A stretch of 64,000 nucleotides of DNA from contig CAKPHH010000006.1 of assembly GCA_934157235.1 (NCBI GenBank), forward strand, positions 9,861 to 73,860, written 5' to 3'. The stretch's first letter is position 1; every line of letters begins with the position of its first letter. The notes beneath the pieces are model-generated. The model ran no database searches, had not been told where the DNA came from, and saw nothing but the letters and a program-made list of their open reading frames with translations. This document shows positions 5,799-45,078 of this stretch, piece by piece. The stretch comes from an uncultured Bacilli bacterium. Lineage in GTDB: Bacteria; Bacillota_I; Bacilli_A; RF39; UBA660. The position numbers were made by a program, and so were the translations under genes.

Positions 5799-5819
5799 TA
5801 ATGAAAGTTCTATTTTTTT
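5787..5819. terminator. bidirectional rho-independent terminator between convergent genes
   Basis: Perfect 10-bp inverted repeat GAACTTTCAT-aata-ATGAAAGTTC followed by a T-run. It overlaps the stop codons of both the 4728..5798 gene and the 5810..6022 gene. Confidence 0.6.
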
Positions 5820-6022: not shown

Positions 6023-6221
6023 TGCCTAATTCCTCCATTCTTTGAGTAGTTACTTTTTTATTAGGATCAAAGAGATTAGCATTATTTATAACTATTTGTT
6101 TATATGTTTCTAAGTTGTCTAGATAATTAATATTATCTTGATCAGTCCAAACTTTTTTCATTGCTTCTAAGTAGCCATAAATTTTATTAACTGCTTGGAC
6201 ATATTGTTCATATTCAGACAT
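6015..6221 (-). CDS. small hypothetical protein in the essC operon
   Basis: 68-aa ORF lying 10 bp downstream of the YukD-like gene, in the same orientation. Confidence 0.4.
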   Translation of the reverse strand: MSEYEQYVQAVNKIYGYLEAMKKVWTDQDNINYLDNLETYKQIVINNANLFDPNKKVTTQRMEELGND

Positions 6222-6230
6222 AAGTACCTC

Positions 6231-6488
6231 CTATACAAGAATTATTCTTGATCCATTTTTTAGGTCTGTATCTTTAACTGTTTTATTAACATCATACACT
6301 TGACCTGTTTCTTTACTGTAAAAGTTTGTTTCAGGACTAATGATGTAATCATGTTCAGTTATTTCTAAAAGTCCTTCTTCGATTAGTCTTTTTATGGTGC
6401 CAATCTTTTTATTGATAGGAATGAACAAGTCATAAGACTTCTCTATTAGAGGAATATATAAACATATTAATATTTTATTTTTATTCAT
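6231..6488 (-). CDS. esaB: YukD/EsaB-like ubiquitin-fold T7SS protein
   Basis: 85-aa ORF immediately downstream of essC. Its size and position are typical of EsaB/YukD. Similarity is weak, so the call rests on context and size. Confidence 0.5.
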   Translation of the reverse strand: MNKNKILICLYIPLIEKSYDLFIPINKKIGTIKRLIEEGLLEITEHDYIISPETNFYSKETGQVYDVNKTVKDTDLKNGSRIILV

Positions 6489-6497
6489 AATTACCTC

Positions 6498-9400
6498 CTA
6501 CTCATCAGATAAGAATTTAACAACGTTGGCTTTACCTTTAGTGATAACATAACCAAAGTTTGGCTCTAACTCTGCTCTTAAAAGACGAGAATTTGTTGTT
6601 ACTTTAAATGTAAATTGATTACCAATACCATTACCTATCCAAATACCTTCTGATAAATCAATATTAGTTTTATACCAAGCTTCATAATTAAGAGACTTGA
6701 TATTATCAATTGTTTCTACAACAATAAACTTAATTGTACCTAATTTAGATGTTTCAGAGATAGCGGTTGTAAATGAAGCTTTCTTAGTAGAATCCAGTTT
6801 AGTTAATAAAGTATTTATGCCAGTTATAATAACAACAATAGGATCTTCACTATTATCCGTTTGTTTAGCAGTAATAGCATTTAAAACTTCTTCTATTCCA
6901 GTTTGACAATTTCCACTATCATAAATTGTATTTTGTGGTGGATTGTCAGATAAAATACTTAGAGCATCTAGAATTAGACATTTACTATTTTGAATTTTTA
7001 GAATCATTTTAGCTAAACCAGAAATAAATGGTTGAAGTGATGTAATATCCTCTCCTGTTATATTGTAAATAGTATTTTTTAGAGAAATTGTAGATATTTC
7101 TAGAGTTTCTTTTTCGATACCTACTGGTATTGATAAAATACCTCTTAGAGATTGGATAACATCATTTTCAGTTACTGTTTCTGGTAGAATTGGAATTTTC
7201 TTAGCCTTGTATTCACAAATTTGATTTAATTTATTACAAATTACCTTAACGTAGTCAACAATCTTTTCTTCTTTAAATGGATAAGCTGTTTGGAATTCGA
7301 AGATACCATCTAAATTTATTAGACCACGGCCAAAACCTTTTGATGGTTCTTTTTTACGAACTCCAGGTAAGACACTTGAATAGTCTGAAGGATCATTAAA
7401 TTGTAAAACAACGTTTTGGGCAAAGTTTTGACGAAGACGGTATCTAACAGTATTAGGTCCATTTGTACTTAGAATAAAGACAATACCATACTTTAGACAT
7501 TCTCTGGTTATTTGACCTAGGGCTTCTTCGTAATCTGGATACATTTCTAAGAAGCCTTCAATATTATTGATAACAACAACAATTAAAGGAATTTGTTTAC
7601 CACCATGATTAATATAGAAATCATAAGAACCATTATAGTCAACAAATACTTTCTTACGATCATCCATAATTTGATTAATCATCTTAAATAAATTAGCAAT
7701 CTTTTCATTTTCAGATGATAATAATACTTCTCCAACATGTGGAGCATTTCTAAACATTGTTAATGTTTCAGCACCAAAGTCTAGTAGATAGAAATTTACT
7801 TCACTAGAGTCATGAGTTGTTATAGTGGAATAAATGATTGTTTGTAACATTAACTCTTTTCCAGAACCAGCAGATCCAAAAATAATAGCGTTCCCGTTTG
7901 AAGACAATGGTAGGGTTAAAACGTTTTGTTTTTGGTTATCTGGATCATCATATTCACCAATAATTGGGTTAATATTATTGGTATTAATTTGATAAGAGTA
8001 TTTTTGTTTTAAATCTTCAACATATATATTATTTGGTATTCGATCTAGCCATAGTTGAGGAATGGAAACAGATTCTTGTTTAGCTTCTTCTACTATGTAT
8101 TTAATAATATTAGTGATTTCCTCACCTTTAGAGGCTACTTGAACTTCATTTTGTTTATTATCAAGACTTTTTATATTATTTCCAGTATCATCGATAAAGG
8201 TAATACTTTGATCGGTCTTTTTCTTTCTCTTTTCGGCCGGATAATACTGAGCTCCTGCCCAAGCGGCTTGTCCTTCTGCAAACAACTCGTTGTAGCCTAC
8301 TTGTAAGTAGAAACGCCCTGCATTTTTTAATGAAGCAGCATCTGGACATTTAATCATATCCATACTGTCTGATTTATCTTGAACTTTTAAACAGACACGG
8401 AATTTAGAGTTTGACCAAATTTGATCATTAACTACTCCGGCTGGTTTTTGGGTTGCTAGAATAAGATGGACACCTAAAGAACGACCGATACGAGCTGTAG
8501 AAATTAATTGTTCCATGAACTCTGGTCTTTGATCCTTTAATTCGGCAAACTCATCAGAGATAATAAATAGATGCGAAATTGGGTTATCTACTAGACCTTT
8601 ACGATAAAGGGCTTGATACTTATAAATATCAATAGTACTTTCATCCAATTTATCTCTGGCTTCATTAAACATTCTTTGACGTTTACGAAGTTCACTTTGA
8701 ATAGAAGCTAAGGAACGGTTCATTTCAACAGTATCTAGGTTGGTGATAGTTCCAGCTAGATGAGGTAATTTCATACCTGTCTCTTTATTTTGGAAAACTC
8801 CGGCTAGACCTCCACCTTTATAATCGATAAGAACGAAGGATACTTCGTATGGATGGTAGTTTAGAGCCATTGATAAAATATAAGTAATGATAAATTCAGA
8901 TTTACCAGAACCGGTCATACCAGCAATTAAACCATGTGGTCCATGAGCTTTTTCATGTAAATCTAGTTTGAATAATTCGCCGGACTTATCAACGCCAACT
9001 GCTGTTTGAAGACTTTTGGTAGGATCATTTGATTTCCATCTATTTAATATATTTAACTGTTCTACCATACCAACATTATACATTTCTAGGAAGGTTAAGC
9101 TTAATGGTAGCGTTTGGTTTGCTTTAGCAATATCGATTGGAATGTTGGCTAGTTGTTTGCAACATTCGTACATATTTAAGTTTAAGTCAAAGTCAGCATC
9201 AAATTCTTTTTGTTTATTTGAAACTAACTCATTTTCAAAAATACCAGACTTTTTATCACCAATACTAATAAATGTTTTACATTCATTTGGTAAATTTACT
9301 AATCTTGGACTGATGACAATTAAACTGAAACCAACGTTTACTTGCATATCAGAAACATCTTTTAATATTTCTAGATCACGAACTGTTTTATAATCATCCG

Positions 9401-11072
9401 TTATGATTACATAGTATGGCTTATATTTTTTATAATCAGCACTATTTAGTTCTCTAGTACCATTTACATCTTTATATTTTCTTGCTTGTAGTTCTTGTTC
9501 TAGGGCAAGAGATATTTCTTTGGCTTCATCTAGAGTATTGGCAAAATAACGGATACTGCGATCATTACTCCAACAGTGTGGACATATTTTTAAATATTCC
9601 CATTTACTAGAATTTTTTTCATTAGTCATTAGAACTATTTTCAAATCTTCATAACTATGATAAGCAATCATTTGAAGAATTAAGCCTTCAATGAATTGTT
9701 GTTTATTTTCAGCAGTACCGATAATTGCGGTAATATTTTTTTCCACAAAAGATGTGGAAATAGGAACATTTTCTAGTAATCTTGATTCAGCTCCTAGTTT
9801 ATAAACTTCTTGTAGAAGATTATCGGAATCAATAGAAAAGTGTTCTTGTGGGAAGTTTATACTACCGGCTAATTCAGTAGTACCAATTCCTAAACGTAGG
9901 TCAAGAAAGTCTGGTTGATCAATTTCTCTTTCCCATAAATTTCTTTTCTTACCAAAAATTATTTCTTTTGTTTCTTGAATTGGTAAGTAATTATCTACTA
10001 GTATTTGACGTTGAATTTTCATAGCGTTTTGAATTTCTGTTCTTTTAGAGTCAACATACTTTTTATACATAGCTTGACGAGTTTCTTCTTTTTTGCGGTT
10101 TTGCTTAGTTTGATATATTTTTGTTAAACTTGGCCATAAAATCATTGTAGATAACATTACTCCGGTTGTTATTAAGGATGGAGCAGCTGTTTTAAAATCC
10201 TTTGAACCATCGGCTAAGCCTTGTAAAGCGGTTATTCCGGTAGTTGCTGACATCATGGACATGGTAAGCATTGGACCAACAGTATATATTAGAGGTGTTT
10301 TATCTTCTTGTTGTTTACCAGGAGGTGTATCAATATTAACATTTATTGGTTCTATTTTAGTTTTAAATCTTGGAGCACGATAGAAGTAATCATCTTCTTT
10401 ATAAAATTCAATGTTTTCTTCATCAGGATTATCCATTTCTGTTTGATTTTGAATCCATGGATGATCTTCTTCAAGAACTCTTTGATCATAATTAACAATA
10501 TTACTGATTCGATTAAGGATTATAGAGTCTTTTAAAACTATTATTTTTAGACCCATGATAAAGATAATGTCTCCATACTCTAGTTGTTTAGAGGCAATAG
10601 CAACATTATTAGCATAAGTTCCATACTTACTATTTAAATCTTGAATTACCCAAATTCCTTTGTTGTATACTAATCTGGCTTGTTGTCTTGAGATTAAGGG
10701 ATAATTATAACAGATTGTTGAGGAAGGATCATTTCCAATAGTTATTTCGCAGTCTCCACGGACACGAAGACGATTTATATTAGGTTCGATTGAGGGAGAA
10801 CAATATAATATTACATATTCGTTATCGGTATTTATTTTTAAGAAGAAAAGGCTGTATTCACTTAAGATAGCTGATTCTATTTCATTTTCTCCTAACATTA
10901 TTTTTGTTTCAAAGTCACTCTTTATTTTCCAGTGACCGTCAAACTCTTCAACATTAATTAGATTTCTGGTATTTCCTAAGTAATCGTTATCCGTTATCCA
11001 ATAATTTCCGGCTATTTTAGTTGGTAGTGTGAAATTGTAAATTTTAGTTTTTTTGATAAGTCTAACTATCAC
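6498..11072 (-). CDS. essC: type VII secretion system ATPase EssC/YukB (FtsK/SpoIIIE family with N-terminal FHA domains)
   Basis: 1524-aa ORF with two FHA-like modules at the N-terminus, a TM segment (VGPMLTMSMMSATTGITAL), and multiple P-loop ATPase domains (GLIAGMTGSGKSE etc.). Confidence 0.85.
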   Translation of the reverse strand: MIVRLIKKTKIYNFTLPTKIAGNYWITDNDYLGNTRNLINVEEFDGHWKIKSDFETKIMLGENEIESAILSEYSLFFLKINTDNEYVILYCSPSIEPNINRLRVRGDCEITIGNDPSSTICYNYPLISRQQARLVYNKGIWVIQDLNSKYGTYANNVAIASKQLEYGDIIFIMGLKIIVLKDSIILNRISNIVNYDQRVLEEDHPWIQNQTEMDNPDEENIEFYKEDDYFYRAPRFKTKIEPINVNIDTPPGKQQEDKTPLIYTVGPMLTMSMMSATTGITALQGLADGSKDFKTAAPSLITTGVMLSTMILWPSLTKIYQTKQNRKKEETRQAMYKKYVDSKRTEIQNAMKIQRQILVDNYLPIQETKEIIFGKKRNLWEREIDQPDFLDLRLGIGTTELAGSINFPQEHFSIDSDNLLQEVYKLGAESRLLENVPISTSFVEKNITAIIGTAENKQQFIEGLILQMIAYHSYEDLKIVLMTNEKNSSKWEYLKICPHCWSNDRSIRYFANTLDEAKEISLALEQELQARKYKDVNGTRELNSADYKKYKPYYVIITDDYKTVRDLEILKDVSDMQVNVGFSLIVISPRLVNLPNECKTFISIGDKKSGIFENELVSNKQKEFDADFDLNLNMYECCKQLANIPIDIAKANQTLPLSLTFLEMYNVGMVEQLNILNRWKSNDPTKSLQTAVGVDKSGELFKLDLHEKAHGPHGLIAGMTGSGKSEFIITYILSMALNYHPYEVSFVLIDYKGGGLAGVFQNKETGMKLPHLAGTITNLDTVEMNRSLASIQSELRKRQRMFNEARDKLDESTIDIYKYQALYRKGLVDNPISHLFIISDEFAELKDQRPEFMEQLISTARIGRSLGVHLILATQKPAGVVNDQIWSNSKFRVCLKVQDKSDSMDMIKCPDAASLKNAGRFYLQVGYNELFAEGQAAWAGAQYYPAEKRKKKTDQSITFIDDTGNNIKSLDNKQNEVQVASKGEEITNIIKYIVEEAKQESVSIPQLWLDRIPNNIYVEDLKQKYSYQINTNNINPIIGEYDDPDNQKQNVLTLPLSSNGNAIIFGSAGSGKELMLQTIIYSTITTHDSSEVNFYLLDFGAETLTMFRNAPHVGEVLLSSENEKIANLFKMINQIMDDRKKVFVDYNGSYDFYINHGGKQIPLIVVVINNIEGFLEMYPDYEEALGQITRECLKYGIVFILSTNGPNTVRYRLRQNFAQNVVLQFNDPSDYSSVLPGVRKKEPSKGFGRGLINLDGIFEFQTAYPFKEEKIVDYVKVICNKLNQICEYKAKKIPILPETVTENDVIQSLRGILSIPVGIEKETLEISTISLKNTIYNITGEDITSLQPFISGLAKMILKIQNSKCLILDALSILSDNPPQNTIYDSGNCQTGIEEVLNAITAKQTDNSEDPIVVIITGINTLLTKLDSTKKASFTTAISETSKLGTIKFIVVETIDNIKSLNYEAWYKTNIDLSEGIWIGNGIGNQFTFKVTTNSRLLRAELEPNFGYVITKGKANVVKFLSDE

Positions 11073-13250: not shown

Positions 13251-13361
13251 TACTCCTATTATCTAGATTTTAACATAGATTAGTTGTTTTTTAAAGAGCT
13301 TGTTTTGTAATACTTGTCTTTACATTTTGACAAAGTAAAATGTTTCCTTTTAGAAATGTTT

Positions 13362-15422: not shown

Positions 15423-15521
15423 CTAGATTTTACCATGGATTGTATTTTTTTTAAAGAGCTAGTTTTGTAATACTTGTCTTTACATTTTGACAAAGTAAAA
15501 CGTTTCCTTTTAGAAACGTTT

Positions 15522-17597: not shown

Positions 17598-17730
17598 AAT
17601 ATGCTACTCCTCTTATTATGAGTTTATCATGATTTAAATTTTTTTGAAATAGCAATAGACAATTTTGTGATTAGTTAGATTACATTACATATAAAAACAC
17701 TTCTGCAATTAGAAGTGTTTGTTAGTTAGT

Positions 17731-19794: not shown

Positions 19795-19914
19795 AATACG
19801 CTACTCCTATTATCTAGATTTTAACATAGAATTTTATTTTTTTAAAGTGTTATTGTTGTGGAGGGTAACTTTTTGGTTTACAAAGAAAGAGACTTTCTAT
19901 AGTTAGAAGTCTCT

Positions 19915-27077: not shown

Positions 27078-28326
27078 AGGCGGTTACTTGTGTTCCATCT
27101 TGTAAAACCACAATAAATGTTGTTTCACCAGTAAGTGCATTTTTGTTTACGTTTGGATTGGTTCCTGAACATAAACGAGTTCCATCGCTATACCTTATTT
27201 CATTGACTGTTATTTGAGTTCCATTTTCATATACTGTTAATATTCTGGCTGGTGAATAGTCATCAACTATAGATATTTTTATTGTATATGATTTTTGATT
27301 CCATGTGGCAACAAGAGTTATGTTACCAGTTACAATTGAATTAAAATTATAGGCATTTCCATTTAGAGTCCAACCGGCAAAGGTATAACCTGTTCTTGTT
27401 GGGGCTGCTGGTTGTGTTACTTTATTTCCTTCTTCTACAATTTGATTTGCTACAGCAGTTCCACCATTGGAATTAAAAATTATCGTATATTTAGCCTTTT
27501 CTTTTTCGTTCCATTTTGCAACTAAAGTTATATTACTTTTGACTTGTGTATCAAAATTGTAGATATTTCCGTTTAGGGTCCACCCAACAAAAATATAACC
27601 ATTTCTAGTAGGATTTGCTGGTTTTGTGGCCTTACCATTTTCTTCAATTACTTGTTTTGAAACAGCACTACCACCATTTGAATTAAAAGTTACAGTATAT
27701 TTTTTTACTGATGGTTTATTATTGTTACTGCTTGAAGTATTGTTGTTATTGTTGTTACTTGATGAGTTTTGATTATTATTAGGTTGATTATTGTTATTCT
27801 GTTCTTTTTCAGGTTCCTTTTCCCATTTTGCCTTAAGTTCAATATTCTTATCAATTACTGTTTCAAAATCAAAAGTTTTACCATCTAATAACCAACCCTT
27901 AAATATATAACCTTCCTTAGTTGGATCTTTTGGTTTTGTAAGCTTGTTTCCTTTTTCAATAATTTGATTTGCTATTGTACTACCAGTATCAGTATCAAAT
28001 TTTACAACAAAAGTTTCAACATCTGCTTCAATTTTAGACCATTTGGCAGTTAAGACTAAATCTGAATTTACTTCTTTGCTAAAATCATAAGTTTTATTTT
28101 GATAAAGCCAGTCAACAAATAAGTAGCCATCCTTAATTGGGTCTTTAGGTTTAGTTGCTTGTTCTCCTTTATTGATTATTTGTGTCTCTATAGGTGTTCC
28201 TCCATCCGTTTCAAATGACACATTATAAGTTATTGTTTTTTTATTGCCTGTTAATAATAAGATAATACCTACTGCTATTATGACAGCAGATAAAATAAGA
28301 ATTATTAACAATTTCTTTTTATTCAT
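27067..28326 (-). CDS. membrane-anchored protein with four Listeria-Bacteroides (Flg_new) repeats and an N/S-rich linker
   Basis: GYLFVDW, GYIFKGW, GYIFVGWTLNG and GYTFAGWTLNG units each end in AKW/ATW. There is an N-terminal TM helix, and the 3' end overlaps the start of the downstream (dockerin-like) gene by 11 bp. Confidence 0.75.
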   Translation of the reverse strand: MNKKKLLIILILSAVIIAVGIILLLTGNKKTITYNVSFETDGGTPIETQIINKGEQATKPKDPIKDGYLFVDWLYQNKTYDFSKEVNSDLVLTAKWSKIEADVETFVVKFDTDTGSTIANQIIEKGNKLTKPKDPTKEGYIFKGWLLDGKTFDFETVIDKNIELKAKWEKEPEKEQNNNNQPNNNQNSSSNNNNNNTSSSNNNKPSVKKYTVTFNSNGGSAVSKQVIEENGKATKPANPTRNGYIFVGWTLNGNIYNFDTQVKSNITLVAKWNEKEKAKYTIIFNSNGGTAVANQIVEEGNKVTQPAAPTRTGYTFAGWTLNGNAYNFNSIVTGNITLVATWNQKSYTIKISIVDDYSPARILTVYENGTQITVNEIRYSDGTRLCSGTNPNVNKNALTGETTFIVVLQDGTQVTAYVV

Positions 28327-34174: not shown

Positions 34175-34600
34175 TTAACGTTTTGAGAATTGTGGTGCAC
34201 GACGTGCTTTCTTTAATCCTGGTTTCTTACGTTCTTTCTTACGAGGATCTCTTGTAATGAATCCTGCAGCTTTTAGAACTTTTCTATAGCTGTTTTCAGA
34301 ATCAGCTGGAGTAGTTTTATCATAATCTAATAAAGCTCTTGTAATTCCTAAACGGATTGCTCCTGTTTGTCCTTGGAATCCTCCACCTTTTACTTTAGCA
34401 TCTACATCGAACATTTCTCTAGTGTTTGTAATATCTAATGGTTGACATAAATCCATTACTAATACTTCGAAAGGTAAGTAGTCATGTACATCTTGACCAT
34501 TGATTGTAATTTTTCCTTTTCCTGGAGTTAATGTAACACGAGCTACACTTGTCTTTCTATGTCCAGTTCCAGTATAAATATTTTTCTTTTCTTTTGCCAT
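34175..34600 (-). CDS. rpsI: 30S ribosomal protein S9
   Basis: 141-aa ORF ending ...RRAPQFSKR, the typical S9 C-terminus. Confidence 0.9.
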
Positions 34601-34616
34601 AAACCTAATCCCTTTC

Positions 34617-35048
34617 CTACTTAACTTCTAGCACTTCTGGTTTTTGTGCCATTTGTTTGTGCTCATTTCCTGCATAAACGAATAATTTCTTAGCCATTTC
34701 TCTACCTAATCTGTTATGTGGAAGCATTCCTTTTACAGCTCTTTCCATCATTTCAACTGGGTATTGTTCTCTCATGACTTTTGCAGTTCTTTCTCTTAAT
34801 CCACCAACATATTGTGAGTGATTATAATACATTTTGTTCTCTAACTTATTACCAGTTAAATTAACTTTTTCTGCATTAATAATAATTATGTTATCACCAC
34901 AATCAATATGTGGAGTATAAGTTGGTTTGTGTTTACCACGTAGATATGTAGCAGCTAATGAAGCAACTCTACCTAAAGATTTACCTTCAGCATCAATTAC
35001 ATACCATTTACGATTTACAGTTTCTTTTTTTTGCATATAACTTGTCAT
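34617..35048 (-). CDS. rplM: 50S ribosomal protein L13
   Basis: 143 aa, conserved L13 sequence ([17 protein letters not shown]...). Confidence 0.9.
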
Positions 35049-35334: not shown

Positions 35335-36042
35335 TTATTTTGCTGGCACTTTGGCCTCTTCTTTTTCAAAAAGTAAATCAATAAAGTCTGTTTTTACATC
35401 ACAATGTGCTTTGATTGCTTTTACATTATCATCGTTTAGATACCTTTCTGCTAAATATACCCTTTGTAGATTCTTCATACTTTGTAAAAATTCTAGATTT
35501 TCTCCTAAATCAGTTCCAAGCACAAATAAGGAACTACAATGAGCTTTATTTCCTAGGTAACTACAATTGTTTAGTATGCAATAGTTTAGGACTAATGTTT
35601 CTACACTTTCCGGGATGAGTTTACAATCGATTTCTCCCTCATCATATGGATTACTAAATTCTATTTTTTTCGCACTGTGATTTGAAGTAAGAATGCTGTC
35701 ATAGTCCTCTATTAGGCATCCTTGAAAACAAATTTCTGATATTGCGTTTTCTGGAATTGTAAGACCCTTTCCTATTAAACATCTTCTAAATGTTAGACTT
35801 TTACAATCTGTTCTAAATAGTTCATCAATATCTCTTTGGGATAATTCATAATTTTCAACAAAAATGTTGTTACCATCAGTTAAAGATTTTAAAACATCAA
35901 AATCACCATCGTGATCTTCTGAACAGCACTTAAAAGGATAGTTTTTTATTGTTTTTAACTCTTCATAACTAATATTTTCAATTTTCTTTCCCAATACATT
36001 TTCTAAATAATCCCTTAGCATACGATTTTTTATTTCTACCAT
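35335..36042 (-). CDS. putative immunity protein for the upstream LXG toxin (Cys-rich, LRR-like periodicity)
   Basis: 235-aa ORF 11 bp downstream of the toxin gene in the same orientation. No signal peptide. The call is from position only. Confidence 0.4.
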   Translation of the reverse strand: MVEIKNRMLRDYLENVLGKKIENISYEELKTIKNYPFKCCSEDHDGDFDVLKSLTDGNNIFVENYELSQRDIDELFRTDCKSLTFRRCLIGKGLTIPENAISEICFQGCLIEDYDSILTSNHSAKKIEFSNPYDEGEIDCKLIPESVETLVLNYCILNNCSYLGNKAHCSSLFVLGTDLGENLEFLQSMKNLQRVYLAERYLNDDNVKAIKAHCDVKTDFIDLLFEKEEAKVPAK

Positions 36043-36053
36043 ATTTTCTTCTC

Positions 36054-39000
36054 CTATAATTTTCTTAAGTAATCCATTATAAACTCTTTTGGCATACTAT
36101 CCATAATTGTTCTATAATCGTGATCTCTTGTAATTACTTGACTATTGCCACTTAGGTACGCTTTAAGTGTCGCTATTTTATTATATCTAGTACCATATTT
36201 TGAAGTCATGTAGTCTCCTATTGTATCTAACATTCTGTGACTTGATTGTATATCATTTTGGACAAGGTATGTTAAAATATCTTCTCTTGTCATTGAAGCT
36301 ATTTCCGTTCTACAACCATCAGTTCTTGTAATCTGGTTTATATCACCGGTTTCATAAAATCTTTTTATTCTCTTCAAACCTTCTCCCTGACCAAATTTAT
36401 AGTTCATAATAGATATTGCTTTATCTATCGTTTCTTTGCTCTTAATTACACTTGCATCTATTTCACTAGCATTAGGCAAATAATCTCTATATACTTCATC
36501 AGCATCTGCTACATGTTCCATTGCAAATTTTTTACTACGTCCAAAATAATCTGCACCTGGATTACCTGATTTCCATGTACAATCAACAGGTATTGCATTA
36601 CCGTTGTCATCAAATACTACATTCCATGCGTGTGTTTCTCCTCTGGATTTACCTCTAATGTAATCGCATGGTACATTACACATATCACATAAGTTCTTAT
36701 ATACTTGAGCGTAGCCAGCACATACAATACCAGGTTTACCTAGAATATTATTAGATGTAATTCCCTTTAGACTTGCAACTACCGAATGATGGCCTCCATA
36801 ATCATGGCAGTAACTAAATTCTTTAGCAACCATTTCATATATTTGCTTTGCTCTTTCAACCCTTGGTAATGACATATCAACTCTTGCTCTTAATTCCTCA
36901 AGTTTTGACATGATTGAAATAGCTTCACTTAAGTTAAAGTTAGTTCTTACTGCATAACGAGTCTTAGTGTATTTTGATTTGTATTGACCATCCATGCCTC
37001 TAAACGCACTATCAATAATAACATTACACTTTGAAGGATCTGCATTATCTCTAATATATCTTAATGCATCACTAGAAAATCTGGCATTATTTCCATTTAG
37101 CCTAACTGCTTCTCCAGCATTTATTTTAGCACAAACTTTGTTAGCTATTTCTAATTCTTGTTGTGTTAGTGAATATCTTCTCTCATAATTATAATCTGCT
37201 GCTATATCTTCTTTAAATGATTTTACTAATTTCTCATTTTCTTGACTTCCAACTTTTCTGTGAATCTCTCCATCTATATTATTTTCGTGTGGAAATACGT
37301 TTTCAGCTTTGATTCTTGCTTCTTCTTCAGCTTTTATTCTTGCCTCTTCTTCGGCTTTTACTCTTGCTTCTTCCTCGGCTTTTACTCTTGCCTCTTCTTC
37401 AGCTTTTACTCTTGCTTCTTCTTCGGCTTTTATTCTTGCTTCTTCCTCGGCTTTTACTCTAGCCTCTTCTTCAGCTTTTATTCTTGCTTCCTCTTCAGCT
37501 TTTACTCTTGCTTCTTCTTCAGCTTTTACTCTTGCTTCTTCCTCAGTCTTGATTCTTGCTTCTTCCTCGGCTTTTACTCTAGCCTCTTCTTCAGCTTTTA
37601 CTCTAGCCTCTTCTTCAGCTTTTACTCTAGCCTCTTCTTCAGCTTTTACTCTAGCCTCTTCTTCAGCTTTTACTCTTGCTTCTTCCTCGGCTTTTACTCT
37701 TGCCTCTTCTTCAGCTTTTACTCTTGCTTCTTCCTCGACTTTGACTCTGGCATCCTCTTCTGCATTGATTCTTGTTTTTTCAACACTTGCATTTTTTGTA
37801 TCTTCTTGAACTTTGAATCTTTCATTTTGGGCTGATAAATCTTTTACCTTTTCATTAGAAATGGATTTAATTTCTTCTGATGATACTCTCTTTGACTCTT
37901 CTATTTTTTGTGATTTTATTTCTTTTTCATACGCTGCGATTTGTTCTTTATTTTGGGCGATCATTTCATCGATTTGTCTTACTGCTTCATCATGGCCTCG
38001 TACGTTTTCTCTTTTTGCCCCATCTTCTTTGATTAATAATTCTTTCTCTTCTATGTTTGCTTTTCTGTCAGCCATTAAGCTTTCATTTTCTGCTTTTAAA
38101 GATTCTATTTGTTCTTTTTGTACTACTTTTAATTCTTCTACAGCTTTTTCGAATATTTCATCTGCTTGGGCTCTTGTTAGTTTTCCTTCTTCTACAGCTT
38201 TATCTAACTTTTTAGCCATATCGCCTATTGTATCATTTTCTGTTATTCCATAGTCTCTATAGTTTCCTGATGTTTCACTTGGAGTTTTCTCTATCATTTG
38301 AACTTTCTCGTCTGGTGCGGCTTTTACACTTCCATCTTCTTGCGCAGGTTTTGTGATTAGTTCTGGGGTTTGTTCAACTGGTTTTACTTCTCTTGGAGTA
38401 CTTTCTGGACTTGGTGTTGATACTTCTTTTTCATATGCTGCGATTTGTTCTTTATTTTGGGCGATCATTTCGTCGATTTGTCTTACTGCTTCATCATGGC
38501 CTCGTACGTTTTCTCTTTTTGCCCCATCTTCTTTGATTAGTAATTCTTTTTCTTCTATATTCGCTTTTCTATCTGCCATTAAGCTTTCATTTTCTGCTTT
38601 TAAAGATTCTATTTGTTCTTTTTGTACTACTTTTAATTCTTCTCCAGCTTTTTCGTACATTTCATCTGCTTGTGCTCTTGTTAGTTTTCCTTCTTCTACG
38701 GCTTTATCTAACTTTTTAGCCATATCTCCTATTGTATCGTTTTCTGTTATTCCATAATCTCTATAATTTCCAGATGGTTCACTTGGAGATGATTTTTCTA
38801 TTGTTGGAACTTTCTCATCTTGTACTGCCTTTACATTTACTTCTTCTTGTGTTGAATGATTTATGTTGTTGTTTTGTGAATCTATTTTTTGAGAAGTGGC
38901 TAAGTCATCTTGTACAATTTGGTCTTTTCGTAAATGATATTCGCTTTCTTTATAATTCAATACATCTTGATTACCAGTTAACATTTGATCTACTTCTTTT

Positions 39001-42000
39001 GTCATTGCGGCATTTTGTTTTGGATCATATTCTCCTATGTTTTTACGTGCTGCCGCTATTTCAGCATCTGTCATCTTTTTGTATGAGTTCCCTGTTAGAT
39101 TTTCTTCTGGTCTTACATAATGATATTCATTTTGTGAATTAACATCATAAGTTTTCTTTGCTAAATCATCTTGTACGACTTGATCTTTCCGTAAATGATA
39201 TTCGCCTTCTTTATAATTATGTACACCAATGTTTTCTATTATTGGATCTACTTGTTTTCCTTCTTCTGCTAATCTTTTTGGTTGATATCCAGCTTCATCT
39301 ACTGCTTTTGCACTTGAGTCTACTCGCTTACCTTCTTCTGCTAGTCTTCTTGGTTGATATCCACTTTCATCTACTGCTTTTGCACTTGGGTCTACTCGCT
39401 TACCTTCTTCTGCTAATCTTCTTGGCTGATATCCAGTTTCATCCACTGCTTTTGCACTTGGGTCTACTCTCTTACCTTCTTCTGCTAGTCTTCTTGGTTG
39501 ATATCCACTTTCATCTACTGCTTTTGCACTTGAGTCTACTCGCTTACCTTCTTCTGCTAGTCTTCTTGGTTGATATCCACTTTCATCTACTGCTTTTGCA
39601 CTTGGGTCTACTCGCTTACCTTCTTCTTGTGTAGGTTTTGTGATTACTTCTGGTGTTTGTTCAACTGGTTTTACTTCTCTTGGAGTAGTTTCTGAACTTG
39701 GTGTTGATACTTCTTTTTCATATGCTGCGATTTGTTCTTTATTTTGGGCGATCATTTCATCGATTTGTCTTACTGCTTCATCATGTCCTCGAACGTTTTC
39801 TCTTTTAGCTCCATCTTCTTTGATTAATAATTCTTTCTCTTCTATGTTTGCTTTTCTGTCGGCCATTAAGCTTTCATTTTCTGCTTTTAAAGATTCTATT
39901 TGTTCTTTTTGTACTACTTTTAATTCTTCTCCAGCTTTTTCGTACATTTCATCTGCTTGAGCTCTTGTTAGTTTTCCTTCTTCTACGGCTTTATCTAACT
40001 TTTTGGCCATATCGCCTATTGTATCATTTTCTGTTATTCCGTAATCTCTATAGTTTCCAGATGGCTCACTTGGAGTTTTCTCTATCATTTGAACTTTCTT
40101 GTCTGCTGCGGCTTTTGCGCTTACATCTTCTTGCGCTGGAGCATTTTTCTTGTAGTTTAAGTCGTTTGCGGTTTTGGTATTTATATCTGCCAATTTAGCA
40201 TCAACTGCTGGTGTTACTACTTTTGTATCTTCTACTAAATTGTTTAGTTTATAGTTTCCATAGTCTGCGGATACTTTTCCATTTTTATATAACTCAACAG
40301 TACTAATCACAGGAGTTGCGGCGGTAGTTGCAGTTACTACATTCGCCATTGCTGGATTTTGACCAGTTGTTGATATTTCAACATTATTTTTAACCGATTT
40401 AGAATTTCCTGTTATATTTGTTTCTGATTTCATATCAGATGATACACTTACTGTTTTTGTCTTATTTCCTATGCTATCTTGAACAATTTGATCTTTTTGC
40501 AAACGATATTCACTAGTATTATAATTTGGTGTATCTACTTTTTGTGGGTTTGTATTGGTATTTTTACCTGCCGTTGTTTGTGTCGCAGTTTTAGTTTCTG
40601 TTTGTGCAGGTTTTCCTGAATTATAGCTTGAATTACTTGCAGTTTTTGTATTAGTTTCTACCTTTTGTCCACTTGTTGCTGGTGTTGTAGTTTTTGTTTC
40701 TGTTTTTGTTGTTTTTTCTGGTTTGTAGCTTGAATCACTAGCTGTTTTTGTATTAGTCTCTATCTTTTGTCCACTTGCTGCTGGTGTTGTAGCTTTAGTT
40801 TCTGTTTGCGCAGGTTTTCCTGAATTATAACTTGGATCACTTGCTGCTTTTGTATTAGTCTCTATCTTTTGTCCACTTGCTGCTGGTGTTGCGGTTTTTG
40901 TTTCTGTTTTTGTTGTTTTTTCTGCTTTGTAATTTGGATCACTAGCTGTTTTTGTATTTGTTTCAATCTTTTTACCAGCAGCTGCTTGTGTGGCAAGTTT
41001 TGATGAACTCTCAACATCGGTTGATAATTTTTCTATTTCTACATCAGTTTTCGTTTTACTTTTACTTTCTATTTTGGCATCGGTTTCCTTACTTTTTAAC
41101 AGTTTTCTAGCATCCATTCTTTCTCCAGCACTGGACATTAATCCACCAAGCGATGCTTGTGTTAGAACATTTTTCCATCCACCTGACGTTTCGAAAGCTT
41201 TGTTATACTTTTCAGCAAAAGTTTCTCCTTCGTAGTCTTTATATATCATAGTTAAAGCTGGTTGAACGAATCCCTCTAGTCCAGAATCAACGGTATCTAG
41301 CCCTATACGAGTTAAAGACCCTTTGCCAGCACTTTTTAATACATTAGTGGCAATTTTATCTCCCCAGCCACCTATTTGTCCTATTTTAGCTCCGATTGCC
41401 CATTGAGCACTTTCCCAAGCACCATTTGCCAAACCATACACCAAACCTTCGCCAAGTGTTGCTCCGTCTGCCCAAGCTTCTTCTGAGCCACTGGAAATTG
41501 CCATTACACCTGCTGTCGCTGCTAATTGTCCTACTCCGACACTTCCAGCTGATAATATACCTGCTCCGGAAGCTAGTCCACCTGTAAAGACATTAAGTGC
41601 TATTATACCGGCACTATAACCAATGCCTTTTCCAATACTTCTTACCGTTTCAAAACCATAGGCATTATTTTTGATTGCTTGACCCAATTCTGTTTCATTA
41701 TAAAAACGATTGAAAGCACTTTCAACCTTTTTTTCTGAAACTCTAGCTTTAGTCTCCTCCCACATTTTTTCTGTTGTATTTTCACCGGTAATTACATCAT
41801 ATCCTAAAGTAAAAACAGAAAATATGGCAGTTGCTCCCATATCAAGCAAATCGGCTCCTGTTTCTAAAAATTCCCCAACACCTTCTACTACACCTAGTCC
41901 AGCAGCACCTACATCTGCTAAAATTCCAGATGCAAATAGTTTGGCTTTTCTGCCAAATGAAATGTAGTCATCAATAGCTGATAAATCAAGGTTTTTATAG

Positions 42001-42308
42001 TCAAGCCTATCCAAGGTGTCTAGAAAGGCATTAATTTCATTCTTATCTTGGCTGAATGCAAGAACTTTTATTTGCATTTCTCTAACATTTTGCACTAATT
42101 GATCAATTAGACTTTTGCAATCAGTCGTATATCCTTTGAAAGTATCGCCGGTGATTCCGCCAATATATTCATTAAACCCTTTAGCGGATACTATTTTTGT
42201 AGTTGAACGTTTGATAGTGTCTGATAATGTTTCAAACTCATTGCTGACTTTGATTATATTTTCAACAGCAAAATTAATTTTTTTACCATCATAATTTAAA
42301 GATGCCAT
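36054..42308 (-). CDS. giant LXG-like T7SS polymorphic toxin with repetitive central region and C-terminal transglutaminase-like (papain-fold Cys-His-Asp) domain
   Basis: 2084 aa with no signal peptide. An N-terminal ~130-aa helical domain is followed by Gly-rich GILADVGAAGLGVVEGVGEFLETGADLLDMGATAIFSV, as in LXG toxins. There are multiple tandem repeats. The C-terminus IVCAGYAQVYKNLCDMCNVPCDYIRG...GETHAWNVVFDDNGNAIPVDCTW matches the transglutaminase core (Cys...His-x-W...Asp). Confidence 0.65.
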   Translation of the reverse strand: MASLNYDGKKINFAVENIIKVSNEFETLSDTIKRSTTKIVSAKGFNEYIGGITGDTFKGYTTDCKSLIDQLVQNVREMQIKVLAFSQDKNEINAFLDTLDRLDYKNLDLSAIDDYISFGRKAKLFASGILADVGAAGLGVVEGVGEFLETGADLLDMGATAIFSVFTLGYDVITGENTTEKMWEETKARVSEKKVESAFNRFYNETELGQAIKNNAYGFETVRSIGKGIGYSAGIIALNVFTGGLASGAGILSAGSVGVGQLAATAGVMAISSGSEEAWADGATLGEGLVYGLANGAWESAQWAIGAKIGQIGGWGDKIATNVLKSAGKGSLTRIGLDTVDSGLEGFVQPALTMIYKDYEGETFAEKYNKAFETSGGWKNVLTQASLGGLMSSAGERMDARKLLKSKETDAKIESKSKTKTDVEIEKLSTDVESSSKLATQAAAGKKIETNTKTASDPNYKAEKTTKTETKTATPAASGQKIETNTKAASDPSYNSGKPAQTETKATTPAASGQKIETNTKTASDSSYKPEKTTKTETKTTTPATSGQKVETNTKTASNSSYNSGKPAQTETKTATQTTAGKNTNTNPQKVDTPNYNTSEYRLQKDQIVQDSIGNKTKTVSVSSDMKSETNITGNSKSVKNNVEISTTGQNPAMANVVTATTAATPVISTVELYKNGKVSADYGNYKLNNLVEDTKVVTPAVDAKLADINTKTANDLNYKKNAPAQEDVSAKAAADKKVQMIEKTPSEPSGNYRDYGITENDTIGDMAKKLDKAVEEGKLTRAQADEMYEKAGEELKVVQKEQIESLKAENESLMADRKANIEEKELLIKEDGAKRENVRGHDEAVRQIDEMIAQNKEQIAAYEKEVSTPSSETTPREVKPVEQTPEVITKPTQEEGKRVDPSAKAVDESGYQPRRLAEEGKRVDSSAKAVDESGYQPRRLAEEGKRVDPSAKAVDETGYQPRRLAEEGKRVDPSAKAVDESGYQPRRLAEEGKRVDSSAKAVDEAGYQPKRLAEEGKQVDPIIENIGVHNYKEGEYHLRKDQVVQDDLAKKTYDVNSQNEYHYVRPEENLTGNSYKKMTDAEIAAARKNIGEYDPKQNAAMTKEVDQMLTGNQDVLNYKESEYHLRKDQIVQDDLATSQKIDSQNNNINHSTQEEVNVKAVQDEKVPTIEKSSPSEPSGNYRDYGITENDTIGDMAKKLDKAVEEGKLTRAQADEMYEKAGEELKVVQKEQIESLKAENESLMADRKANIEEKELLIKEDGAKRENVRGHDEAVRQIDEMIAQNKEQIAAYEKEVSTPSPESTPREVKPVEQTPELITKPAQEDGSVKAAPDEKVQMIEKTPSETSGNYRDYGITENDTIGDMAKKLDKAVEEGKLTRAQADEIFEKAVEELKVVQKEQIESLKAENESLMADRKANIEEKELLIKEDGAKRENVRGHDEAVRQIDEMIAQNKEQIAAYEKEIKSQKIEESKRVSSEEIKSISNEKVKDLSAQNERFKVQEDTKNASVEKTRINAEEDARVKVEEEARVKAEEEARVKAEEEARVKAEEEARVKAEEEARVKAEEEARVKAEEEARVKAEEEARIKTEEEARVKAEEEARVKAEEEARIKAEEEARVKAEEEARIKAEEEARVKAEEEARVKAEEEARVKAEEEARIKAEEEARIKAENVFPHENNIDGEIHRKVGSQENEKLVKSFKEDIAADYNYERRYSLTQQELEIANKVCAKINAGEAVRLNGNNARFSSDALRYIRDNADPSKCNVIIDSAFRGMDGQYKSKYTKTRYAVRTNFNLSEAISIMSKLEELRARVDMSLPRVERAKQIYEMVAKEFSYCHDYGGHHSVVASLKGITSNNILGKPGIVCAGYAQVYKNLCDMCNVPCDYIRGKSRGETHAWNVVFDDNGNAIPVDCTWKSGNPGADYFGRSKKFAMEHVADADEVYRDYLPNASEIDASVIKSKETIDKAISIMNYKFGQGEGLKRIKRFYETGDINQITRTDGCRTEIASMTREDILTYLVQNDIQSSHRMLDTIGDYMTSKYGTRYNKIATLKAYLSGNSQVITRDHDYRTIMDSMPKEFIMDYLRKL
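37296..37790. repeat. 24-bp coding tandem repeat x ~21 (EEEARVKA/EEEARIKA)
   Basis: Period-24 repeat GCTTCTTCTTCAGCTTTTACTCTT visible directly. Antisense ORFs 37242..37835 and 37309..37809 are artefacts of it. Confidence 0.9.
37850..40110. repeat. three dispersed ~450-bp coding repeats (approximately 37850-38330, 38390-38830, 39680-40110) plus five 72-bp tandem repeats (~39230-39620)
   Basis: The protein repeats PSEPSGNYRDYGITENDTIGDMAKKLDKAVEEGKLTRAQADEM...AAYEKEVSTPS (x3) and EEGKRVDPSAKAVDESGYQPRRLA (x5). Near-identical antisense ORFs 37813..38253, 38353..38757 and 39640..39960 reflect the same repeats. Confidence 0.85.
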
Positions 42309-42586
42309 TATTTTGCCGCCTTTAGACTACTTGCTAGTACACTTCTAAACTTTTTATCTTCATCATCTGAATATCCAACACTTACTACTTTCTCAATTTG
42401 ATCTTTATTAAACAATAAATTTTTCTCACTTGAAACCATTCCAATGGGATAGGCACAACCTATATAGTCCCACATTTTCTTGCTTCCTTCTTCCATTCCT
42501 GCAAAACCTATAATAACAATCTTTCTAGTAGCTTCTTTTAATAAAACTACTGATCCAATTGGTAAAAATTCATCATTTTCCTTCAT
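42308..42586 (-). CDS. DUF4176-like small protein (LXG-toxin export accessory factor family)
   Basis: 92 aa. The N-terminus EFLPIGSVVLLKEATRKIVIIGF...DYIGCAYPIG resembles the DUF4176 signature as I recall it. Its stop overlaps the toxin start codon. Confidence 0.5.
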   Translation of the reverse strand: MKENDEFLPIGSVVLLKEATRKIVIIGFAGMEEGSKKMWDYIGCAYPIGMVSSEKNLLFNKDQIEKVVSVGYSDDEDKKFRSVLASSLKAAK

Positions 42587-42598
42587 ACTTATACCTCT

Positions 42599-42988
42599 CT
42601 ATCCTTTACTTTGACTATTCTTTTGTGCTTGTATAGCTCTATCCCTTGCTTTAGCATTTTCATTGTATTGGCTTTGAATTTGATTATATATATCTTCTGT
42701 TACTTGTCGTATATAATCTGTCGCATCTAAAATAGCTTTTCTTCTTTCTTCTATTCCAGCGCTGCACTCATCTACATTTTCCTCCATTGTTTTATTATCT
42801 ATTGATAAAGATGTTTTATCAATTCTTGCAGCTTCACTTTTAAATAAGTTTGCTAAACGTGAAATTTCGTTCGCATCATTATCAACGGCATTACAACCTT
42901 TAATTATGGCTGTTGCATCTATTTTAGTACTGGCAGATGTTGCGGTTACATATTTTCCTACATATTGTCGCATTAATCCCATAAACAT
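42599..42988 (-). CDS. small helical protein, candidate LXG-associated (Lap/WXG100-like) targeting factor
   Basis: ~125 aa, all-helical composition, immediately upstream of the DUF4176-like gene in the same orientation. Confidence 0.35.
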   Translation of the reverse strand: MFMGLMRQYVGKYVTATSASTKIDATAIIKGCNAVDNDANEISRLANLFKSEAARIDKTSLSIDNKTMEENVDECSAGIEERRKAILDATDYIRQVTEDIYNQIQSQYNENAKARDRAIQAQKNSQSKG

Positions 42989-43078
42989 ACACCTACTTTT
43001 ACTTTCCTATTATCTACTATTTATAGGATATCATAAAAAAAAAGCAAGTACAATACTTACCCTTCCTAATCTATTTAC

Positions 43079-43435
43079 TTATAAAGTTTTTATTAGTTGT
43101 TTATTTTTCTCTATAGTATTTTCGTCTGGTGCATCAATTAAGTCTTCTAGCGATACTTCGGCAGATAACTTTTCGATATCTTCATCACTTAATCCGGCAA
43201 GAATAGATAGTTCTTCATCAGTCGTGTAACTCATGTATTTTGCGGCATTGGCTAGAGTAGCCCTTTCAGAGATACCTTGAATAGTTACGGCTGCTGCTGT
43301 TACAGCTGTTCCTATTGCTAAAGTACGTGCTTTCTTTTCATCACTCATATTACTAGTAAAGTATAGATAAGATGTTCCTCCGGCTGTTGATGTTGTAACT
43401 CCCACTGCAGTAGTGGCTGCTGGTTTTATTATCAT
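43079..43435 (-). CDS. hypothetical small protein (Ala/Thr-rich N-terminus, acidic C-terminus)
   Basis: 118-aa ORF overlapping the upstream gene by 4 bp. No recognisable domain. Confidence 0.35.
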   Translation of the reverse strand: MIIKPAATTAVGVTTSTAGGTSYLYFTSNMSDEKKARTLAIGTAVTAAAVTIQGISERATLANAAKYMSYTTDEELSILAGLSDEDIEKLSAEVSLEDLIDAPDENTIEKNKQLIKTL

Positions 43436-44229
43436 TTTGCATTTCCCCCTTCTTTATTTTGGCTAAAACCTCTTTGAATTTGTCTTTCTCTTATTTCTCG
43501 TTGAGCCATGGCTCTAAGTTGTAATAATTGTTCTTTTGATTTTGCTCCATTTATTATTTCTGTTACTGTTGGTAAAGCAGTTGGTGTTATAGTTTTTTCT
43601 TTTTCTTGCATAGCTTCAGCAATAACCTTTATTGCTTCGCCACAGTTTTCTTCTTCTTTTTTCTGTTTTCTTTCAGCAATCTTTTTTAGTTGTGTTTCAT
43701 TTTGTTTAAAGCGATAAATATTATAATCTTGAATGTTAATACACTCAAAATTTATAAAAGCTGAGAGTGTTTCTATCGCTACAAATGGCAGCACTATTGG
43801 AAAACCAGCAACTGCTACACCAACTAGGATTGGTAAGACTATTAAGTCTGTTATTAGTCCTTCTTGATGAACTCTTTTATTCCATTTCAAGTAACCTAAT
43901 GTTTCTTTAGGATTTTTCATATCCAGATGATAGTTTCTATTTTGTTCTCTATTTAGTTCTTTTCCAAACATAAGCTTTTGTTCGCGAAAGTTAGCTATTA
44001 TCATACGCTTTTCCGATTCAGTTTTAGCCTTTCTCAAAGCTTTTTTACATTTTCTGTCACATGATTTTTCATATTTTTCTTTAGCGTTTGGAAAATAGTT
44101 TTTTAGAACTTTGAATTTTAACTTTTCTACTTTGAATACAATCTGTTGAAACCATTCAGCACCTAGTCTTTTACAGCGATTAATTTTCTTTTGATATTCT
44201 TCTTTCGTTAATTCACTTTCCATAACCAA
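43432..44229 (-). CDS. hypothetical membrane protein (two adjacent TM helices, highly charged K/E-rich flanks)
   Basis: 265-aa ORF with a central LIVLPILVGVAVAGFPIVLPFVAIETLSAFI segment. It is the first gene of the inserted block after truA. Confidence 0.45.
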   Translation of the reverse strand: MVMESELTKEEYQKKINRCKRLGAEWFQQIVFKVEKLKFKVLKNYFPNAKEKYEKSCDRKCKKALRKAKTESEKRMIIANFREQKLMFGKELNREQNRNYHLDMKNPKETLGYLKWNKRVHQEGLITDLIVLPILVGVAVAGFPIVLPFVAIETLSAFINFECINIQDYNIYRFKQNETQLKKIAERKQKKEEENCGEAIKVIAEAMQEKEKTITPTALPTVTEIINGAKSKEQLLQLRAMAQREIRERQIQRGFSQNKEGGNAK

Positions 44230-44328: not shown

Positions 44329-45078
44329 TTAATATTCAACACCTGTTAAATATAGGCCTACGGCTGGAGCTGTTTTTCCAGACTTTGTGCGGTCTTTGCT
44401 TTCTAAAATTTTTTCAACAGTTTCTGGGGATATTTTATTTTCTCCTACTCTAATTAAAATACCGACCATGTTGCGAACCTGATATCTTAAAAAACCATTG
44501 CCATGGAAAGTTATAATTAACTTATTAGAATTTTGTTCAATTGATGCTTTATCGATAGTTCTATTACAATTTTCTTTTTCTTTATTTTCAGTTACAAAGG
44601 CCCTATAATCATGAGTGCCAATAAAATATTTTATAGCTTTAGACATATTTTCTATATTTAGTTCATGATTATACTGAAAAACATAATTTCTTTCAAGAGG
44701 ATTATATTCTCCTAGATTAATATAATACTTGTACTCTTTTCCTTTTACATTATATCTAGCGTGAAAATTATTATCCACAACTTCTGTGGAAATTATATGA
44801 ATATCGTCTGGTAAATTACTATTTAGGGCTCTTTTTAGTTTTGCTTCAGTTATATCTATTGATAAATCAGTATGGGCACATTGGCATAGAGCGTGAACGC
44901 CTTTATCTGTTCTACCAGTTGCACAGATAGTTGTCTTTTGTCCGTTATTGACTTTTTCTAGAGCATTTTCTAGTTGCTGTTGGATGGTGTTTAGGCCTGG
45001 TTGACTTTGGAAGCCTGAATAGTTTGTTCCATCATAGGAAAATTTTAAAAGAAAGCGCATTTCTACCTCCTTATACAT
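44329..45078 (-). CDS. truA: tRNA pseudouridine(38-40) synthase TruA
   Basis: 249 aa with DGTNYSGFQSQ and GRTDKGVHA catalytic motifs. Confidence 0.9.
   Translation of the reverse strand: MYKEVEMRFLLKFSYDGTNYSGFQSQPGLNTIQQQLENALEKVNNGQKTTICATGRTDKGVHALCQCAHTDLSIDITEAKLKRALNSNLPDDIHIISTEVVDNNFHARYNVKGKEYKYYINLGEYNPLERNYVFQYNHELNIENMSKAIKYFIGTHDYRAFVTENKEKENCNRTIDKASIEQNSNKLIITFHGNGFLRYQVRNMVGILIRVGENKISPETVEKILESKDRTKSGKTAPAVGLYLTGVEY

Follow-up and report, generated by a model that had tools for sequence, protein, structure and literature searches.

Most toxins so far characterised for the type VIIb form (T7SSb) of type VII secretion systems (T7SS) are nucleases, NADases, lipid II phosphatases or membrane-depolarising proteins. 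Here we describe a locus on a 64,000-nucleotide stretch of contig CAKPHH010000006.1 from an uncultured Bacilli bacterium (assembly GCA_934157235.1; GC ~31%; hereafter the window), in which one large open reading frame (ORF) encodes a putative toxin whose last ~380 residues form a single conserved three-part module: an alpha/beta subdomain, a predicted transglutaminase-core enzyme and two IreB/ReoM-like domains. We put the probability at roughly 70% that this protein, called the toxin below, is a type VIIb-secreted polymorphic antibacterial toxin of uncultured low-GC Bacillota that ends in an enzyme joined to a tandem IreB/ReoM-like module.

Among described T7SSb systems, the LXG toxins that work with Lap and Ltc proteins, such as TelA and TelB of Streptococcus intermedius, are encoded in the gene order lap, lap, ltc, toxin, immunity, and proteins of the DUF4176 family are their chaperones (PMC12478183). 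The window shares with them an order of small ORFs, DUF4176 gene, large toxin gene and probable immunity gene, as well as an essC gene in the genome, a long middle region between N-terminal and toxin domains, and polymorphic C-termini. It differs in an N-terminal domain for which no LXG profile match was obtained, in small upstream proteins for which no Lap family match was obtained, and in a far larger protein with a repetitive spacer that we measure at ~1270 aa and that a first-pass annotation, made from the letters and ORF translations of this DNA, had put at 2000 aa.

Transglutaminase-type toxin domains of polymorphic toxins are an already known kind, catalogued in 2012 as Tox-TGase and predicted there to act as peptidases, transglutaminases or polyaminating/deamidating enzymes (Zhang, Aravind et al. 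2012, PMC3482391). The present toxin resembles them by description, in that a papain-like Cys-His-Asp fold makes up the putative toxic C-terminus of a polymorphic toxin that is secreted. Within the portion of that catalogue drawn on here, however, the described examples are mostly type III secretion, RTX or Legionella effectors directed against eukaryotes, and no T7SS example with IreB-like repeats is described.

The repeats that follow the enzyme have their counterparts in IreB, ReoM and CcpS (UPF0297, PF06135), which are PASTA kinase substrates controlling MurA-family enzymes or CpsB. Unphosphorylated IreB directly inhibits MurAB, and IreB Asp50 lies on a conserved loop touching MurAB such that the D50A substitution abolishes both binding and inhibition (PMC12077105). 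In Listeria the unphosphorylatable ReoM variant T7A is lethal, and R57A and R62A are lethal to the same degree (PMC7286690). Whereas IreB and ReoM are free homodimers of ~89 aa, the toxin repeats are fused in tandem and joined to an enzyme and a secretion domain, and they differ further in being without the Thr7 segment and in having the loop proline replaced by threonine.

Closest to the enzyme among solved structures is TglA of Streptococcus pyogenes (PDB 9crn, deposited as a 'transglutaminase-like domain-containing protein'), which is 15-19% identical overall. TglA is a 379-residue chain, whereas the window enzyme is the C-terminus of a large toxin, and the C-terminal part of TglA has no match to the IreB-like repeat profile. 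For the LapG/BTLCP proteins (bacterial transglutaminase-like cysteine proteases), identity is 9% and no sequence-level relationship was found, LapG being a periplasmic calcium-dependent adhesin-processing protease, unlike the window toxin.

The literature searched yielded no characterised T7SS toxin whose enzyme domain has a transglutaminase fold, and no paper tying IreB, ReoM or UPF0297 domains to T7SS, polymorphic or any other secreted toxins. What appears to be new at this locus is the fusion of the enzyme to tandem IreB/ReoM-like domains, a dedicated partner family, and a connection with T7SSb by way of an N-terminal domain of a non-LXG type.

Predicted catalytic domain of the toxin

All four strings quoted by the first-pass annotation are present in the toxin translation. 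The two that it had read as the catalytic part of a transglutaminase-like Cys-His-Asp enzyme are GIVCAGYAQVYKNLCDMCNVPCDYIRG (residues 1860-1886; window 36651-36731) and GETHAWNVVFDDNGNAIPVDCTW (residues 1890-1912; window 36573-36641), which lie 3 residues apart (KSR) and not the ~12 that it gave. Within the triad, 30 residues separate Cys1863 from His1893 and 16 separate His1893 from Asp1909. The Pfam Transglut_core profile (PF01841; cut-off 23 bits) scored 25.9 bits when residues 1690-2084 were scanned alone and 22.6 bits, just under the cut-off, when the full 2084-aa protein was scanned. By sequence, TglA was the only solved structure to be recovered, at E=1.5e-6 with the single sequence and 1.9e-19 with a family profile, in an alignment that spans all three motifs (VCxGYAQ, HAWN and VDxTW).

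Collecting relatives of the C-terminus needed an exhaustive search, as a word-indexed search returned one relative only, which was near-identical and truncated. The exhaustive search gave 2158 database relatives at E<=1e-3, with 52 at E<=1e-30. Conservation of the triad was counted over 156 aligned segments covering it, and because each of its residues is kept in 155 or 156 of these (Table 1) and the relatives are so numerous, the match to the triad string exceeds chance.

Structure prediction with AlphaFold gave a predicted local distance difference test score (pLDDT) of 40 for the C-terminal 395 aa as a single sequence, a model that was discarded, and a pLDDT of 88.4 with a predicted template-modelling score of 0.65 when an alignment of 23 sequences was supplied. 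In this second model the cysteine stands at the N-terminus of a helix packed on the sheet that carries the histidine and aspartate, the latter two being on or beside adjacent strands, which is the canonical transglutaminase-core arrangement. Foldseek with the model returned TglA (E=6.6e-7), then a Cytophaga putative cysteine protease, then a bacterial transglutaminase. The TglA structural alignment runs over 351 columns and takes in the alpha/beta N-subdomain, in which D65, K90 and Y91 are invariant in alignment A2 and which is modelled at a pLDDT of ~90. A papain-like fold, on which the reading of the first-pass annotation depended, was thus found by profile, by structure search and in the model, and together with the TglA alignment and the conserved triad these results support a transglutaminase-like Cys-His-Asp (papain-fold) domain as the predicted C-terminal enzyme of the toxin.

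A near-identical toxin locus is present in one ENA metagenome, and the related loci derive from metagenome-assembled genomes (MAGs) of uncultured Bacilli from rabbit gut and sheep rumen. One related metagenome assembly ends inside the repetitive spacer region. The relative P0001 was considered as a 371-aa standalone version of the enzyme and rejected, its contig beginning within the repeat region.

IreB/ReoM-like repeats following the enzyme

The first-pass annotation had also noticed a short duplication in the last ~60 aa, quoting ITRTDGCRTEIASMTREDILTYL (residues 1993-2015) and ITRDHDYRTIMDSMPKEFIMDYL (residues 2059-2081). The two segments are indeed related, and the duplication itself extends further, as two units of ~59 aa (residues ~1957-2015 and 2023-2081) whose 23-aa ITR segments, the quoted strings of copies 1 and 2 respectively, are merely the most conserved part. 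The two copies align without gaps at a score of 57, against 22.9 +/- 4.2 for shuffled sequences, with 0 of 2000 shuffles reaching 57. On the profile comparisons that follow, this short duplication is a predicted pair of IreB/ReoM-like domains that the first-pass annotation had not recognised.

Relatives carry the enzyme followed by one to four units of ~60 residues with the consensus ...KYGxGxG...L..Y..TGNxNxITRxxGAR......I..Y. An iterated hidden Markov model (HMM) seeded on the window's two copies recovered 148 copies in 78 of the 171 relatives collected, exactly two copies being present in 50 of these 78 proteins and a single copy in 19, over a range of 1-4. The copies may also precede the enzyme on its N-terminal side, examples being P0038 and P0045.

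When a profile built from 43 diverse copies was run against every PDB sequence, the only chains matched, all at E~1e-4, were those of S. suis CcpS (7y8z and 7y86), Listeria ReoM (6tif) and E. faecalis IreB (5us5), with the next match at E=0.28. Conversely, the Pfam IreB profile (PF06135) was matched by 13 of the 43 single copies (best E=1.7e-7), the sister toxin P0027 scores above its gathering threshold (28.1 against 25 bits), and several standalone relatives bear a precomputed PF06135 annotation. The repeats were found to have the small helical IreB fold.

The best-conserved stretch of the repeat is the loop TG[N/D]xNxITRxxGAR, which aligns with the client-binding loop SGDPxYIPRxxDAR of IreB and ReoM. 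In an alignment of 140 repeat copies, ReoM and CcpS to the repeat HMM, the equivalent of ReoM Arg62 is arginine in 138 of the 140 copies and that of Arg57 in 93, the position of IreB Asp50 holds Asn in 73 copies and Asp in 34 (one or the other in 107), and the loop proline is replaced by threonine in 137. Alignments start at IreB/ReoM residue ~15-22, so the N-terminal segment with the phospho-acceptor Thr7 is not present in the repeats, and because it is missing we call them IreB-like domains and not IreB regulators.

Position of the module among relatives

The module is followed by no more than 150 residues in 70 of the 91 relatives covering the triad, and close relatives of the toxin type usually have ~10 residues or less between their last IreB-like repeat and the stop codon. 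A minority are polytoxins of several domains. Two database relatives carry further domains: P0024 (2758 aa) has four tandem Cys-His-Asp cores with weak glutamine-deamidase-like matches, and P0034 (2134 aa) has an ADP-ribosyltransferase domain after the module, such that both look like multi-warhead toxins.

In Clostridia MAGs, the enzyme and two IreB-like domains occur as a protein of ~450 aa without a secretion domain, within a conserved three-gene cassette of partner (223-237 aa), enzyme and a small 130-141-aa protein (L008 6252-8810; L011 6299-8751). The L011 cassette adjoins the conjugative type IV secretion genes TrbC, PrgI, TraC and TraG.

A partner gene at all 13 loci examined

The gene for a 235-aa protein begins 12 bases downstream of the toxin gene. 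The protein has only a weak internalin-like match (E=0.025) and possesses no hydrophobic N-terminus, signal peptide or membrane segment, which suggests that it and the enzyme meet in the cytoplasm. Related loci were found by a search with a 7-sequence core alignment, giving 12 loci (L001-L012) that make 13 with the window, and a partner HMM built from five family members was searched against all ORFs of these 13. Exactly one match per locus was obtained, 13 of 13, always by the enzyme gene, and the matches in L002, L004, L006 and L007, which were outside the training set, had E-values of 9e-26 to 3e-42. The partner gene is the next gene downstream of the toxin in the window and in L001, L002, L004, L005, L006 and L007, is the third gene downstream of a toxin with extra C-terminal domains in L003, and is the next gene upstream of the standalone enzymes (~450 residues) in Clostridia L008-L012. 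That enzyme and partner are so strictly paired speaks for a function of the partner in immunity or as an antitoxin, and the 235-aa protein, judged by its gene neighbourhood, is the probable immunity protein of the toxin. Even should the targeting proposal given below not hold, this pairing over 13 loci defines a new candidate toxin-immunity pair.

At L003 (9069-10123), two small genes lie between the toxin with its internal module and the partner gene, one for a protein of 177 aa with no match and one of 174 aa with a weak HD_4 match; they may provide immunity for the extra C-terminal domains of that toxin.

Secretion context and the N-terminal domain

The first-pass annotation had read the toxin as a T7SS effector, and genomic context backs this reading through the upstream DUF4176 gene, EssC and the sister locus L005. 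The DUF4176 gene lies immediately upstream of the toxin gene, its stop overlapping the toxin start, and it was found also at L002, L005 and L006. At L005 a sister toxin with the same module is preceded by a weak YukD-like gene (E=1e-4, under the Pfam cut-off), two WXG100 genes and the DUF4176 gene. The window EssC has FHA and FtsK_SpoIIIE domains, and this motor, encoded ~25 kb from the toxin, is inferred to export it.

The toxin has no signal peptide (maximum 19-residue hydropathy of residues 1-60, 0.31), and its N-terminal ~420 aa are presumed to be the T7SS targeting and translocation part. For these 420 residues we found 20 homologues, 240-719 aa long, whose C-termini are not alike and comprise EndoU (PF14436) and transglutaminase-like domains among others, and such variable C-termini on a shared N-terminal domain are a hallmark of polymorphic toxins.

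Between the N-terminal domain and the module lies the spacer, whose nested repeats comprise 3 copies of ~117 aa (residues 750-866, 1179-1295 and 1347-1463), 6 of 24 aa starting at residue 895, 18-20 of the 8-aa unit EEEARVKA (residues 1525-1675) and 4 Thr/Lys-rich units of 34 aa. Matches of the full protein to Cornifin, TolA, HTH_19 and Staygreen fall in this region, are low-complexity or sub-threshold, and were ignored.

Beside the essC gene, a run at window 5810-11072 (-) consists of essC and then three small ORFs (85, 68 and 70 aa) without Pfam match; a YukD or WXG100 identity for these was dropped as no family matched. No EsaA, EssA or EssB was seen beside essC, and the T7SS locus of the window looks minimal or divergent.

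Proposed mechanism and alternatives

In the producing cell, the DUF4176 chaperone would stabilise the toxin and EssC would export it, and the 235-aa protein would neutralise it in the cytoplasm. In the cytoplasm of a rival, the Cys-His-Asp domain would covalently modify a protein by cleavage, deamidation or cross-linking. The IreB-like pair may here imitate the IreB dimer in a form that cannot be phosphorylated and dock the enzyme on a client of IreB/ReoM, the most plausible one being a MurA-family UDP-N-acetylglucosamine (UDP-GlcNAc) carboxyvinyltransferase, such that peptidoglycan precursor synthesis would be shut down. This targeting proposal draws, by homology, on the conservation of the loop together with the published ReoM and IreB mutants, and the presence of exactly two repeats in most repeat-bearing proteins was counted in its favour, since IreB works as a dimer. 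That the toxin captured the IreB/ReoM core domain as a tandem pseudo-dimer, a regulator mimicry aiming the enzyme at MurA-family enzymes, is nevertheless a proposal that we hold to be doubtful. If true, it would represent a new toxic mechanism against the first committed step of cell-wall synthesis, would offer a natural probe for the IreB-MurA interface, and would suggest a function for the large, uncharacterised family of relatives of the enzyme, to which S. pyogenes TglA and the standalone cassettes of Clostridia belong.

Several observations weigh against this account or parts of it. The window's own repeat copies fall under the Pfam IreB cut-off (21.2 against 25 bits, E=3.5e-4), and the replacement of proline by threonine with the frequent Asn at the Asp50 position means that the binding specificity of the repeats may differ; it is equally conceivable that they bind the immunity protein or that they stabilise the enzyme. 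For TglA, the nearest relative with a solved structure, the literature searched gave no function, and a minority of the 91 relatives, of which 21 have more than 150 aa beyond the module, carry it internally, with other domains behind it. Neither the ORF of 129 aa nor that of 118 aa upstream of the DUF4176 gene matches a Lap family or any other family, and the 129-aa protein has no homologue at the related loci. Lastly, the N-terminus had been called LXG-like by the first-pass annotation, an assignment that we rejected after five separate profile tests were all negative: the LXG profile (PF04740) has no match in the window protein, in 12 N-terminal homologues or in 9 sister toxins, and a profile of the N-terminal domain matched no solved LXG structure, nor any other solved structure. 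For want of an LXG match the toxin is here termed T7SSb-associated and is not classed among the LXG proteins.

A rival reading keeps toxin and enzyme as described but detaches the repeats from the IreB pathway, making them a general-purpose helical module for stabilising the enzyme or for binding the immunity protein or an unrelated substrate, and we rate the chance of this as somewhat short of even. The sub-threshold Pfam scores of the window copies, the changes at key positions (Asn being commoner than Asp at that of Asp50), the variable copy number, the copies N-terminal to the enzyme and the absent phospho-acceptor segment all fit such a module, whereas conservation is centred on the IreB client-binding loop with the Arg62 equivalent nearly invariant, and IreB-family proteins are the only solved relatives. 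The same missing Thr7 segment would also suit toxicity that is independent of catalysis, in which the repeats behave like an IreB/ReoM protein that is never phosphorylated, inhibiting MurAB or causing MurA to be degraded by ClpCP, and the enzyme is accessory; the lethality of ReoM T7A in Listeria (PMC7286690) and the direct inhibition of MurAB by unphosphorylated IreB (PMC12077105) agree with this. Yet the triad conserved in 156 relatives implies that catalysis is under selection, and 19 of the 78 family proteins have a single repeat only, making such a mode of action improbable.

Two further alternatives place the activity of the module elsewhere. It might act on the cell wall outside the cytoplasm, for example by cross-linking the stem peptides of peptidoglycan or by cleaving them as an isopeptidase, comparable to PeiW and PeiP on pseudomurein, which we consider unlikely given that the partner, lacking signal peptide and membrane segment, suggests a cytoplasmic encounter, that IreB-family proteins are cytoplasmic, and that the standalone relatives are also without signal peptides. 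Or the module might be a self-processing or maturation protease and not the toxic part: the part of the 2012 catalogue drawn on here assigns peptidases of the transglutaminase type, in some polymorphic toxins, to the processing proteases (Zhang et al. 2012, PMC3482391), and the module is internal in some relatives, with the ADP-ribosyltransferase after it in P0034 as an example. In the window and in most close toxin-type relatives, however, the module is the last domain with nothing downstream to release, and a processing protease needs no immunity protein, whereas a dedicated partner gene accompanies the enzyme at all 13 loci including L003 with its internal module; a merely processing role is thus very improbable. 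We retain, as the preferred reading, a secreted antibacterial toxin with an enzyme and a tandem IreB/ReoM-like module at its end.

Coordinates of the features

Table 1. Features of the toxin locus and of the essC gene, in window positions; helix and strand numbers are those of the AlphaFold model.
Feature	Position	Strand	Basis or remark
Toxin ORF, 2084 aa	36054..42308	-	ORF translation
Conserved N-terminal domain, residues 1-420	41049..42308	-	helical head, then Gly/Ala-rich hydrophobic region
Low-complexity repetitive spacer, residues ~421-1704, E/K/A-rich	37197..41048	-	nested repeats
Alpha/beta N-subdomain of C-terminal module, residues ~1714-1808	36885..37169	-	family conservation and model
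Transglutaminase-core (papain-like) catalytic domain (predicted), residues ~1809-1945	36474..36884	-	
Catalytic Cys1863 codon (predicted)	36720..36722	-	Cys in 156/156 relatives; first residue of helix 174-187
Catalytic His1893 codon (predicted)	36630..36632	-	His in 156/156 relatives; in strand 202-210
Catalytic Asp1909 codon (predicted)	36582..36584	-	Asp in 155/156 relatives, Glu in one; directly after strand 216-219
IreB/ReoM-like (UPF0297-like) domain copy 1, residues ~1957-2018	36255..36440	-	
IreB/ReoM-like domain copy 2, residues ~2023-2084, runs to stop codon	36057..36242	-	repeat HMM E=2.2e-14
235-aa partner, probable immunity protein, possibly leucine-rich-repeat-like	35335..36042	-	adjacency to enzyme gene in 13/13 loci
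92-aa DUF4176 protein (small Ltc-type T7SSb toxin chaperone)	42308..42586	-	Pfam PF13780, 99.1 bits against cut-off 25
129-aa small protein, position of Lap-type targeting factor	42599..42988	-	position alone
118-aa small protein, position of second Lap-type factor	43079..43435	-	position alone
EssC, T7SSb motor ATPase	6498..11072	-	NCBIfam TIGR03928, 1026.8 bits against cut-off 778.4

Other genes in the window

The toxin and its neighbours form an island (35335-44229, -) inserted in a conserved ribosomal/housekeeping block between truA (44329-45078) and rplM-rpsI (34175-35048). The island also has a 265-aa lysine-rich ORF (43432-44229, -), which is hydrophobic in its central segment and matches no family.

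Elsewhere in the window, five tandem paralogous ORFs of 679-691 aa lie at 11193-21954 (-), and the two of them that were scanned have an N-terminal prepilin-type methylation motif (N_methyl) and BspA-type leucine-rich repeats (LRR_5), an unusual pilin-like leucine-rich repeat array. Two adjacent proteins at 25386-28326 (-) carry Listeria-Bacteroides (Flg_new) repeats, and the three dockerin type I domains that one of them has in addition suggest that the source organism forms cellulosome-like assemblies at its surface. At 2605-4673, an Abi_2 abortive-infection-like protein (2605-3558, -) adjoins a zinc phospholipase C-like protein (3702-4673, +).

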